From Candidatus Enterousia sp. (GTDB lineage: Bacteria > Pseudomonadota > Alphaproteobacteria > Rs-D84), in the NCBI GenBank assembly GCA_045133095.1, contig JBGUTP010000007.1:7669-71668 (forward strand): 64,000 nucleotides of DNA, written 5' to 3'. A program made the translations under genes and the position numbers. Positions 57,253 through 61,889 of the stretch are shown here, one piece after another; position 1 is the first letter of the stretch, and each line of letters opens with the position of its first letter. The notes under the pieces are model-generated. The model was not told the DNA's origin. It saw only the letters and a list, made by a program, of their open reading frames with translations, and did not search any database.

Positions 57253-58809
57253 TCAGAACTTTGCATTTACCCCGATACGCACACCCAAAGATTTATAGAA
57301 AGATTCAATTTCACCATTTGCTGTGCAGACCCATCCTGGGCATTCTTCTTCCAACTGAACAATATTCTGTGCGACCGCATCGTTTGCCAGCATCTGATTT
57401 TCATCACCACCATACAGATTTTCCAATCTATCGTTATAGATACCCATATAGTAATCCTCGCTCAGATATGTTTTTGCATCGGCATCACTTACACTGTAAT
57501 AGTCATAGGTAACCCCAAACGACAAAGACACCGTATTTGAAATTGCGGTCGCCCAACTTGCCCCCATCCCCAGATGCAATGCCGAACCAACACCCGCTTC
57601 ATCTTCCACCGACTTAGGATGTTCCCAGTCAAATCGATATGGCTGATTACCTGTTGCCTTATACGATGGCAATCCCAATTCCACATATGCATTAACATAA
57701 TTATCCTTATTGATGTCATACAGCATATCCAACGCCACATACGGTCCTGACCACTGCACTTCGTATTCATGGCTGACCCCTGGCTGGTCATAATAATATG
57801 TCCCACCAGTATTTACAAAATCATAAGTCTCCCCTGTTTCTGGATCTACTGGCACCTGGATTTGGTCATCTAAATCAATTTTACCATCACCATTAGTATC
57901 ACCACGCGTTGCCAAGAATTGATTTCCCGCCTGGTCATAGAAAATCAGCACTGGGTCACATTGCACTTCATCACTACCTGGCACACTGATGCATCCGCCA
58001 TCACCATCAAATGTATCGATTGCCAACCCATGATTATTGTGTGTTTCCAATTTATACTTCAAATGACGCCATCCGATTGACGGGCTAAACTTAACATTTC
58101 CCCATTTAAACAGGTCAACAAACCCAAACCCCACATTAAATTCCATCAAAGAACCATCCTTGCTGGTTCCAATAGACAACGCACGTCCCAACTGGTCCCC
58201 CAGTGTATCATACTTAATACATTCGCCATTAACGTCTGTTTCCAAACACGTGGCCCATTCTGTTACGAAATACCCACCATTAGTAACGTCATCGTCAACC
58301 ATGGTCGATTCACCCGCCTGCATTCCATACTTAAATCCCGCCGTGGCTTTCATTTTTGTATTACCACCGAACACAAACCCTGCGTTTATATCCAGCACAT
58401 TCCAATCCACATTATCATAATGCAAAATTGATTCAGACTCTTTCATTTCGAACTGCCACATAGACGTCTGGCGTGACAATCCGCCGCCCAAATAGAATCC
58501 ATTTTTATCTGCCTGCACGGTGCTGCGCTGTTGTGTTTGTCTGGCGGCTTGCGGCTGTGTTGTCCGCACTCCTTGTGTATTTCGTGTTGCGCTATAGCCT
58601 GCATTGGCATATTGATTTCTGTTATACGGCGACACCCCTTGCTGTGAATAAGTGGTGCTTCTTGTACGTTGCGTGCCTGACTGTTGGGTATATCTGCTGA
58701 CCTGTGGCGATTGATAGTTCCCGGTATAATAGGTCCCTGCAGCATTTGCGGCGGCAGGTATCAGCAACAAAGCGGAACACTTAAACAGCAACCCAGACAA
58801 ATATTTCAT
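57253..58809 (-). CDS. Outer-membrane beta-barrel protein, omptin-like pattern
   Basis: Signal peptide, Q/T-rich linker, beta-strands, C-terminal GVRIGVNAKF. Confidence 0.6.
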   Translation of the reverse strand: MKYLSGLLFKCSALLLIPAAANAAGTYYTGNYQSPQVSRYTQQSGTQRTRSTTYSQQGVSPYNRNQYANAGYSATRNTQGVRTTQPQAARQTQQRSTVQADKNGFYLGGGLSRQTSMWQFEMKESESILHYDNVDWNVLDINAGFVFGGNTKMKATAGFKYGMQAGESTMVDDDVTNGGYFVTEWATCLETDVNGECIKYDTLGDQLGRALSIGTSKDGSLMEFNVGFGFVDLFKWGNVKFSPSIGWRHLKYKLETHNNHGLAIDTFDGDGGCISVPGSDEVQCDPVLIFYDQAGNQFLATRGDTNGDGKIDLDDQIQVPVDPETGETYDFVNTGGTYYYDQPGVSHEYEVQWSGPYVALDMLYDINKDNYVNAYVELGLPSYKATGNQPYRFDWEHPKSVEDEAGVGSALHLGMGASWATAISNTVSLSFGVTYDYYSVSDADAKTYLSEDYYMGIYNDRLENLYGGDENQMLANDAVAQNIVQLEEECPGWVCTANGEIESFYKSLGVRIGVNAKF

Positions 58810-58915
58810 GATAAAAATCCTTTTTTCCATTAACTAAATTTACTTCTGTTAAAATTTTATCATAAAAAGTGTTGAAAAACAAATTACTTCTTGTAAAAAT
58901 AGTCGCACCGACGAT

Positions 58916-59000
58916 GCGACCATGGCGGAACTGGCAGACGCTCAGCACTAAGGATGCTGTGGGGCAACCCGTGGGGGTTCGATTCCCCCTGGTCGCACCA
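58916..59000 (+). tRNA. tRNA-Leu(AAG)
   Basis: 85-nt type II tRNA: GCGACCA/TGGTCGC-A-CCA acceptor, CAGCA-CT AAG GA-TGCTG anticodon arm, variable arm GGG-GCAA-CCC, A73. Confidence 0.93.
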
Positions 59001-59066: not shown

Positions 59067-61889
59067 ATGAAGGGCTTCAAACTAATTTTTGCTGCGATAT
59101 GCGCACCGCTTGTTTTACATGCGGCAACTGCTGATGATGCGGTTGATTTGTCACGTGCGGCGAACCGTCGCGACACCACAACCACGGTGACCAGCACACG
59201 CAAAAAAACCGACACACCAAAGAAAGCCACCACGAAACAAACTGCTTCACGCACTGCGGACACGGCTACTGCGCCACGCGAAACGCCCCACGTTGGCAAC
59301 CGGGCGACAACCGCCCCCCGTCCTACGGACAAGGCCGTAACGGCACGCACAACGTCAACCGTTCTGCCCCGCACTATCAAGACAACATCTGTGCGCACAA
59401 CATCGGCACGTCCGGCGACAACCACTGCCCGCACGGCGACACGAACCACTGCGCTTTCCACGCCATCACGCACGGACGGCGCACGCGCCGCCACTGATAC
59501 TGCATCCCGCGCCCGCACGGCAAAGATTGCGCGCGCCACGACCAGTGCGGACATCCTTAACCGCGACTATTCCAAATGCCGTCAGGTTTTTCACGATTGC
59601 ATGGACGAATTCTGCGCCAACAAGGACAACCAACTTAAACGCTGTGCCTGTTCTGCCCGCATGAACGAATTTGACAAGACTAAAAAAAGCCTGGCCTCTG
59701 CCGAAGACAAACTTCTTGATTTCAGTCAACGTCTTTTAACCGTCAACATGGACGCCGAAGATGCCATGGCAATAAACACCGCGACCGAAGGTGAAATTGC
59801 CTATGCTGCCAAGGACACATCTAAGTCTAAGAAATTACTGGACGAAATCGCAAAAAAATTAAACACCAGTTTTAACAACAGCAACTTTGACCAAAATCTG
59901 AACGCGATATCGCTGTCATTGAACACGGACATGGCATTTGATAGTGTCAGTTCGATGATGGGCGCATCCACCACCAGCAAAAGTGGCACAGACCTGTATC
60001 GTTCGGCATTACCGATATGTCGTCAAATGACACTTGAAATCTGTGACCAGGCGGAACTTGACATCGCAGAAAGCAGTTATTTAATGGCAATCGAACAAGA
60101 TTGCAACACTGTTTCAAAATCCTATCAGACCCAGGTTGACCAGGCACGGACCAAGGTCCTGGAATCAAGCGCACTTCTTGACATGTCGCGCCTTGACATT
60201 TATCAACAGCGCAATTCCGACGACATCTTGACCTGCAAGCGCAAGATGCTTGACATGTTGACTGACTCTACCATTTGTGGGACGGACCTGGGAAAATGTC
60301 TGGACACATCTGGTCGCTATATTGATCCGACCACTGGCACGGCATTTTTGACGACGGACCTGTGGCAGTTATCTAAATTAATCGAACGCCCCACCGCACA
60401 ACAGACATGGACCAACGCCCCTGGCAACTATATGTTTGTAAACTTTTTAAATTCCAAAAAGACCTATCTTGAACCTGCCATGGAAAAATGCCAGGACATA
60501 TCAGATTATGTCTGGGATTCATTTCTTGAAGATGCCCTGGCGCAAATCAAACTGGCCCAGGATTTAAAACTGGAACAGATGCGTCAATCCTGCACGACCC
60601 TGACGACGCAATGTTTAGATGAAACCCTGGATTCTATCACGGAATTTGATGCACGTGCGCTGTCTATTTTTGGTATTGCGGCGGACCGCACTGTAAACGC
60701 GATGTGTGCCAACGTAACCAACGCCTGCACTGCACTTTTAGCAAACACTGGCGATATCAAAAAAGAATGGGAAAAGGGCATGTCTGGCATTGCCACCGAC
60801 AAAACCTATGAATCCATTCTGCAAACCTGTCGAGAGATTGGACGTTCCTGTATTATTCAGGTTTGCACATCCACATCGGGCAACTTTGGACTTTGCGAAA
60901 GCATTGACACATCCATTAACCGCAAGGCTATTATCACCGGCACCGCCTGTTGGGACAAGGTCAAGGAATGCGTACTTAGTGCCGGCGACGCCCTGACGGA
61001 CATAGCTGCTAAACACCACAGCGAAAATTTCCTTACCGAAGTTTATGGAACCGCCCCATCCCCCTATTACTCTGTTTGTACAAACGAAGATAAAGATGCC
61101 TACGCCTGCCTCCTGACGGAACGCATTTGGGGGCATTGCGAACACTCACCAACCGACAAGAACAACCCAACAAACAAAATCATAATCCCATCCGACAACA
61201 CATCGACCCTGCTGGCTTGGTTTGCGGTAAACACAGGCACCAACAACCATCCCGACAGTTGCCGCGACACATCATGCCCGCCCGGTTACACCCTTAATGC
61301 AAACGGTGAATGCAGCGAAATCGGCAATGTCGATATATGCGGTAACGATTGCAATAGCAACAAAATCACAGTTGCCAACAATATTGTCAACTGTTGCAGT
61401 GGCGACGTACTAAACAACAGCATCTGTTGCGCATACCACACAACAACTGGTACCATCGCCAACAATTCGTACGTATTCGGCATCACCGACACAAACAAAG
61501 GTACAACGTTCTGCAAGGCTTCCGACACCAACACCGCACCAACCCTGGTTGCCGAATACACCCTTAATGACGATAAACACCTTGTAATGTGCTATGGCAC
61601 GGTCAACTACCAACCGGACGACAACGGTACTGATGCCTATCCAAACGGAACCAATATCGTGTGCAATGGACAAATGGTTATTGTTAACACCAAAACAAAC
61701 ATTCACAATGTAATCGGCGGCAGAACCACAAACTATATCCAAACCGGACCCGGCGCAACATGCACAACCAACGACGGCGCATGGAACTGCAATGGAATTA
61801 CGGGAATACAGGGGCACATCGTCGGCGAACCCACCGCCTGTAAAACACAAACCAGGGCGGAACAAGAAACATCAGGAACCAACCAATGA
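59067..61889 (+). CDS. Large secreted Cys-rich protein (940 aa)
   Basis: Signal peptide, T/A/R-rich linker, [18 protein letters not shown] domain, T/N/C-rich C-terminus. Confidence 0.8.

Follow-up and report, generated by a model that had tools for sequence, protein, structure and literature searches.

Is the adenosine at the wobble position of an alphaproteobacterial leucine tRNA a substrate of TadA, and where did such a tRNA come from? These questions are raised by a tRNA-Leu gene with the anticodon AAG (wobble base A34) in Candidatus Enterousia sp., found in a 64-kb stretch of DNA that is called here the window. In GtRNAdb-based surveys, nearly all bacterial Leu(AAG) belongs to Bacilli, with scattered proteobacterial cases (PMC13249217; Raval et al. 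preprint). The inosine form, Leu(IAG), is known from Oenococcus and Streptococcus, and Lactobacillales have a TadA of expanded specificity (PMC11472039; 10.1101/2023.09.19.555891; PMC13249217). The order Rs-D84, to which Enterousia belongs, is described as comprising gut bacteria whose genomes are smaller than 1 Mb (PMC12306168). The assembly is 1.08 Mb long and 97% complete, with a GC content of 43%, and the contig that contains the window measures 161 kb. The relevant features of the window are as follows, with coordinates counted from its first base.

4883 to 4959, plus strand: tRNA-Arg(ACG), the canonical TadA substrate, with anticodon arm UCUGA-CUACGGA-UCAGA (ARAGORN)
57253 to 58830, minus strand: gene for a Pom-like outer-membrane protein (PF17251, by Pfam), divergent and upstream of tRNA-Leu
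58872 to 58900, plus strand: promoter-like site TTGAAA-17 nt-AAAAAT with TG upstream, a weak consensus match (9 of 12)
58916 to 59000, plus strand: type II tRNA-Leu(AAG) with discriminator A73 and an encoded CCA (ARAGORN, Rfam RF00005)
58943 to 58959, plus strand: its anticodon stem-loop CAGCA-CUAAGGA-UGCUG (sequence and cross-genome comparison)
58950 to 58952, plus strand: its anticodon AAG, with A34 at base 58950 (ARAGORN and sequence)
59067 to 61889, plus strand: gene for a 940-aa protein downstream of tRNA-Leu, the second synteny anchor

The window has five tRNAs by ARAGORN, Leu(aag) and Arg(acg) among them, and the anticodon AAG is placed at position 35 of the Leu tRNA. The Rfam RF00005 model matches the gene with 51 bits (gathering score, 29; E = 1.7e-9). 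The sequence folds into an acceptor stem of GCGACCA/TGGTCGC, a D stem of 3 bp (GCG/CGC), a long variable arm (GGG-GCAA-CCC) and a T arm of GGGGG/CCCCC. Discriminator A73 is a LeuRS element and G37, located 3′ of the anticodon, is a TrmD element; the gene has both (TGGTCGC-A-CCA at the 3′ end and CUAAG-G-A in the loop). The promoter-like site, a consensus match, ends 16 nt upstream of the gene. An earlier reading of the window, made from sequence only, had described a type II Leu tRNA with AAG at 58950–58952 and a tRNA-Arg(ACG) in the same window, and the ARAGORN and Rfam results agree with it on both. The Enterousia tRNA-Leu(AAG) is a real gene and is the normal reader of CUY codons in this lineage.

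The genome encodes a permuted tmRNA and 45 tRNAs, with five Leu isoacceptors (AAG, UAG, CAG, UAA and CAA). Leu(GAG) is absent among the 45, and tRNA-Leu(AAG) is the sole reader of CUU and CUC in that set. Only Leu(AAG) and Arg(ACG) have A34. The sequence-only reading had suggested, as one of two possibilities, that a reduced tRNA set serves the CUN box and had raised the absence of Leu(GAG) and Leu(UAG). GAG is indeed missing, but UAG is present; with 45 tRNAs, Leu(UAG) and Leu(CAG) included, the set is therefore not reduced, and AAG merely substitutes for GAG. Outside the window (contig C4, 89230–89320), the intact tRNA-Leu(UAG) gene is followed at a distance of approximately 80 nt by a second, truncated copy, which lacks the 5′ acceptor strand and has a damaged variable arm. 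Two UAG-type matches are found in many genomes of the genus.

The gene is highly conserved within the genus. The exact string AGCACTAAGGATGCT is present in 176 of 184 genomes of species of the genus with a completeness of at least 90% (∼96%), and the anticodon-arm core AGCACUAAGGAUGCU is likewise found without change in 176 of the 184. AAG is the anticodon of all 30 orthologues retrieved from other species in the genus. They show 84–98% identity in the tRNA, and the 17-nt anticodon arm is invariant between them; the acceptor and variable stems vary in a compensatory manner. Across 18 diverse copies of the gene, pairing is kept in 99.5% of cloverleaf cells and 12 of 23 pairs display changes on both sides; none of 500 shuffles in a control of this covariation reached the observed values. 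The copy in the window is thus not a singleton, a possibility that the sequence-only reading had entertained, and Rs-D84 relatives that have GAG carry it in place of AAG: one or the other is found, never both in one genome.

The positions of neighbouring genes provide the link between the two anticodons. Families of the order are designated here f1–f6 and genera g1 and upward. In family f1, both flanking genes keep their position by the Leu tRNA, and the tRNA at this locus is either AAG or GAG. By tblastn, the Pom-like gene is found beside AAG as well as GAG tRNAs across the family. The gene family of PF17251 is Pom-like, a Protochlamydia outer-membrane protein family; the 940-aa protein has no match in Pfam. 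The same tRNA with its flanking genes is also present in records named 'Candidatus Enterousia sp.' and in records of uncultured gut Alphaproteobacteria. AAG is found in most of g1 and in g16 and g13. GAG is found in g14, g15, g17–g21 and two g1 species (G143 and G029). Families f2–f5 carry Leu(GAG). Family f6 has AAG in two genomes (G045 and G048) and GAG in another (G041), with a near-identical tRNA body: the acceptor stem and T arm are identical, as is the D arm in G048, and the differences are mainly at the remodelled positions of the anticodon arm. Because synteny around the Leu tRNA is not conserved in f6, orthology in that family is drawn from the near-identical tRNA body by itself. By position, the Enterousia tRNA-Leu(AAG) is orthologous to the usual tRNA-Leu(GAG). 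It shares with the canonical alphaproteobacterial tRNA its locus, type of tRNA body and role as CUY reader, but differs from it by five substitutions in the anticodon arm, the wobble base included.

These substitutions stand out against a nearly uniform class. The survey covered 149 other alphaproteobacterial families with one genome each, and a match was obtained in 134. All 134 have Leu(GAG); none has Leu(AAG) and none has A38. The arm is nearly always CAGCG-UUGAGGU-CGCUG, with position 32 always U and position 38 U or sometimes G. A further CTAAGG match (G317) appears not to be a tRNA. Relative to the class-wide arm, Enterousia has the changes G31A, C39U, U32C, G34A and U38A. All AAG forms of Rs-D84 (g1, g16, g13 and f6) share G34A, U38A and the replacement of G31-C39 by A31-U39. 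U32C, which yields the loop CUAAGGA, is present in every AAG clade except g13. The GAG forms of the order all have U32 and U38. In f6, G048 has the stem UAGCA/UGCUA instead of CAGCA/UGCUG. The g13 tRNA (G068, L174) has the loop UUAAGGA, in which U32 is retained and A38 gained, and this loop looks like a step between the GAG-type loop and CUAAGGA.

How often did the change take place? A maximum-likelihood tree of RpoB from 30 genomes requires at least four changes between the labels GAG and AAG, and all four are forced by well-supported branches. On this tree AAG is carried by the main g1 clade, g16, g13 (nested in g14) and f6. The AAG genes of f1 are also alike in the variable arm and T arm. 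Since this likeness extends beyond the anticodon arm, allele exchange or reversals are inseparable from parallel mutation in this family, and the patchy distribution of AAG in f1 suggests some allele exchange among close relatives. The f6 event is clearly separate from those in f1. Three arm variants with GAG are found in f1 besides AAG. The two g1 species with Leu(GAG) at the orthologous locus (G143, L185; G029, L186) have the arm CCACU-UUGAGGU-GGUGG and a T arm similar to the one in genera g18 and g20; these two species, g20 and the AAG clade form three unresolved branches on the RpoB tree.

The form of the remodelled loop points to TadA. With the exception of nucleotide 35, the loop and the A31-U39 closing pair of Leu(AAG) are those of the Arg(ACG) of the same genome. 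The other CUN-reading Leu tRNAs of the genome retain U32 and U38. The TadA of Streptococcus pyogenes edits tRNA-Leu(AAG) fully and has the consensus YUAMGRA, but the Escherichia coli enzyme requires YUACGAA and cannot edit the S. pyogenes tRNA-Leu(AAG) (PMC11472039; preprint 10.1101/2023.09.19.555891). The Enterousia CUAAGGA loop, with its C32-A38 pair, fits the S. pyogenes consensus and is the loop of the Streptococcus tRNA-Leu(AAG) whose editing to inosine was shown by experiment. In the complex of S. aureus TadA with RNA, the stem-proximal C32-A38 pair is contacted via Lys106 and Asn123; A31-U39 is present in the complex, yet not contacted. The A38 base is touched by a loop that is conserved in TadA and ADAT3. 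In its remodelled form, the CUAAGGA loop thus has exactly the features that a TadA substrate needs.

The genome has a single TadA homologue, which lies on another contig and adjoins a tRNA-Met gene.

Contig C21, 83546 to 83983, minus strand: TadA homologue with HAE and PCxxC motifs (by homology)

It matches the solved structures 2a8n, 1wwr, 2b3j, 2nx8 and 1z3a at E values from 1e-33 to 1e-20, and on a reading of the structure alignment its K102 aligns with S. aureus Lys106. TadA sequences were compared between 12 AAG-bearing and 17 GAG-bearing genomes of Rs-D84. No substitution in this set tracks AAG in all four AAG-versus-GAG sister contrasts. One change is specific to g1, a Thr after GGGI where GAG-bearing g1 has Ile or Leu, but it is not present in g16, g13 or f6. 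Either the Rs-D84 TadA already tolerates A35, or the tRNA-Leu(AAG) is unedited.

Deamination of A34 by the single TadA, which would give a mature tRNA-Leu(IAG), is the most likely mechanism and probably the correct one. The change of G34 to A34 arose with U38 to A38, G31-C39 to A31-U39 and, other than in g13, U32 to C32. These changes create the C32-A38 pair and the CUAAGGA loop; TadA would then convert A34 to inosine, and Leu(IAG) would read CUU, the few CUC codons and, redundantly with Leu(UAG), CUA. On this reading of the loop remodelling, TadA would accept A35 and the mature tRNA would carry I34. An independent broadening of TadA specificity had been proposed in the sequence-only reading. 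The independent origin is upheld by the alphaproteobacterial tRNA body and by the locus shared with sister Leu(GAG) genes; the broadened specificity is the best-supported mechanism, suggested by the remodelling of the loop.

Leu(IAG) of Lactobacillales (S. pyogenes, S. mutans, S. pneumoniae and Oenococcus oeni) is the nearest known counterpart. There too AAG replaces GAG and the two are never found together, A31-U39 closes a CUAAGGA loop, and there is a single TadA together with tRNA-Arg(ACG) and a retained Leu(UAG), so that CUA reading is redundant. The Arg and Leu loops differ only at nucleotide 35 in Enterousia, but at nucleotides 35 and 37 in S. pyogenes. Unlike the Lactobacillales tRNA, that of Enterousia originated independently from the alphaproteobacterial CAGCG-UUGAGGU-CGCUG arm; CUU and CUC usage is low rather than raised; no adaptation of TadA is visible; and the editing is a prediction from sequence.

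Several observations sit less well with inosine. Across the four sister contrasts, TadA shows no substitution that goes consistently with AAG. CUC makes up 0.7% of Leu codons, and the genus has accordingly little need for inosine. An I-U wobble pair is no better than the G-U pair that it would replace, and A34 itself would form a Watson–Crick pair with CUU. The loop changes could instead tune the decoding by A34 on the ribosome. Perhaps, then, A34 is unmodified or partly modified. CUU would be read by an A-U Watson–Crick pair, the very rare CUC inefficiently, through A-C wobble or by Leu(UAG), and C32 and A38 would tune decoding rather than recognition by TadA. This is the serious rival to editing, though the less probable of the two. 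It draws on the 12:1 ratio of CUU to CUC, with which a pure CUU reader would be enough, on the lack of a convergent TadA change among the sister contrasts and on the E. coli TadA, which leaves AAG loops unedited (PMC11472039). Engineered four-box tRNA(ANN) species are unmodified yet functional in E. coli (Raval et al. preprint, 10.64898/2026.05.15.725136), and unmodified A34 pairs best with U (PMC11066159). An unmodified A34 would also be adaptively attractive in a genus in which only CUU matters, as A-U is superior to I-U or G-U. A natural precedent, as cited in the Raval et al. preprint, is tRNA-Thr(AGU) of Mycoplasma capricolum, in which A34 is unmodified. The Enterousia tRNA resembles this tRNA and the engineered E. 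coli tRNA(ANN) in serving a four-fold box, in the small genome and in the dominance of the U-ending codon. In contrast to them, it occurs together with TadA and its loop matches the TadA consensus. Weighing further against an unmodified A34, the same arm changes recur in separate clades and yield the TadA-contacted C32-A38 pair and a YUAMGRA loop.

The codon usage itself has another explanation. In 770 long open reading frames of the genome, the Leu codons number 5572 UUA, 9565 UUG, 1963 CUU, 163 CUC, 783 CUA and 5980 CUG. CUY codons are therefore 8.9% of Leu codons, and the CUU:CUC ratio of 12:1 (1963 versus 163) corresponds to a C/(C+T) value of 0.077, compared with 0.25–0.69 in other NNY pairs. 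At the DNA level, CTC/GAG is the most depleted trinucleotide genome-wide, with an observed/expected ratio of 0.20 (∼5-fold) on both strands. The depletion is found in all frames (counts by frame are 163/563/488 for CTC and 1749/514/535 for GAG), and off-frame counts amount to 0.21–0.33 of the counts after synonymous-codon shuffling. The ratio is 0.42 in intergenic-like DNA. Ratios of 0.08–0.25 are found in all f1 genomes sampled, the GAG-bearing G089 and G143 among them (the samples include the 20-kb loci L151–L156, L161 and L162), and the depletion is not found in families f2–f6, where ratios are 0.5–1.3. The CUY box is little used and CUC almost absent because CTC/GAG has been purged genome-wide in f1. 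As the depletion is independent of frame and extends to GAG-bearing sisters, it says nothing about decoding or modification; scarcity of CUC as a sign of an unmodified A34 was rejected on these grounds, the depletion being off-frame, intergenic and present where the anticodon is GAG. The depletion either predates the anticodon switch or is independent of it.

A restriction site is an unlikely cause of the CTC/GAG depletion, since the shortage is even across the eight NCTC and CTCN 4-mers (0.15–0.24). Separately, the palindromic 4-mers CTAG, AGCT and GATC are found at about 0.10 of expectation genome-wide, and GTCGAC, GTGCAC and GTATAC are strongly depleted. This depletion of palindromes is the signature of heavy restriction-site avoidance.

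The low-use CUY box of f1 may be behind the fast evolution of its Leu tRNA: infrequent use probably relaxed selection on the tRNA and would have permitted repeated switching between GAG and AAG. A more specific proposal is that an unedited A34 became fixed genus-wide despite the presence of TadA, enabled by the DNA-level purge of CTC/GAG that nearly erased CUC. If so, the loss of a codon by sequence-context pressure would be the cause of repeated anticodon switching. That account is unlikely. Family f6 weighs against an unmodified A34. The f6 genome G045 (genus g9) has an identical AAG anticodon arm and uses CUC normally, with 793 CUU and 288 CUC among 2015 Leu codons. Its CUC/CUY value of 0.27 is similar to that of its other NNY pairs, and CUY codons are 54% of its Leu codons, versus 28% in the GAG-bearing G041. 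Normal use of CUC calls for a tRNA that reads this codon efficiently, and inosine would suit that need. The Leu tRNAs detected in this genome, which is 80% complete, are AAG, CAG and CAA only (L272, L273, L277), and Leu(GAG) was not found. The sample has 104 CUA codons, and if Leu(UAG) is truly absent, the reading of CUA would need inosine. Enrichment of CUU and CUC has been reported for Lactobacillales with Leu(IAG) (PMC13249217), and the CUY enrichment of G045 parallels it. Raised CUU/CUC usage compared with GAG-bearing relatives (Katanski 2026), a correlate and not a defining property of Leu(IAG), is absent from the Enterousia genome and present in G045.

Acquisition of the AAG gene by horizontal transfer, from Firmicutes or another phylum that has Leu(AAG), is a further explanation to consider. 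A scan of 185,579 species genomes, which gives a sample of the distribution, yielded at least 119 Leu(AAG) genes confirmed by ARAGORN (loci L031–L150). The sequence-only reading, in which Leu(AAG) was known mainly from some Firmicutes, therefore understated its range. The matches listed come from many, mostly uncultured phyla and include Verrucomicrobiota (Akkermansia among them), Cyanobacteria, many Clostridia, Cloacimonadota, Planctomycetota and Actinomycetota; Prochlorococcus and Synechococcaceae single-cell genomes and Ca. Actinomarina; and Hydrogenedentota, Fermentibacteria, Synergistales, Micavibrio and Mycoplasmopsis agalactiae. Among the 119 genes listed, A38 is found in 111 and the CUAAGGA loop in 99, those of Streptococcus included. 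Seven of the matches listed have UUAAGGG loops, including apparently isolated cases in a Yoonia MAG and a Bifidobacterium breve MAG. The CUAAGGA loop is thus common to Streptococcus and many phyla, and the patchy distribution in f1 is consistent with some exchange among close relatives. Foreign origin is nonetheless highly improbable. The Enterousia stem CAGCA/UGCUG derives from the alphaproteobacterial CAGCG/CGCUG, but other sampled phyla have CNAGA/UCUNG or CAGGA/UCCUG stems. Furthermore, the gene occupies the orthologous locus, and in f6 the AAG tRNA has almost the same body as the local GAG tRNA.

That the AAG reflects an assembly or binning error or a pseudogene, with GAG or UAG as the true anticodon or the gene unused, is hardly credible: conservation of AAG across species, with the identical arm in 176 of 184 genomes of the genus, rules out an assembly error and effectively refutes the rest, and the compensatory changes in stems, the status of the gene as the only CUY reader, the conserved locus on a 161-kb contig and the promoter-like site upstream all argue against it.

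Leu(AAG) as a kind of tRNA is already known, and Rs-D84 represents a clean independent origin in the Alphaproteobacteria. Its value lies in the parallel recurrence of the same arm changes against a background that is nearly frozen in more than 100 alphaproteobacterial families, and in the closely interleaved sister genomes with AAG and GAG, which permit direct comparison. The loops UUGAGGU, UUAAGGA and CUAAGGA offer a natural mutational series, well suited to defining the features of the tRNA, and those of TadA if any, that are needed to carry wobble inosine beyond tRNA-Arg, the step which came before the expansion of eukaryotic ADAT. In the Enterousia lineage, the anticodon change is further linked to the near-loss of a codon, CUC, that was caused by depletion of the CTC/GAG trinucleotide.
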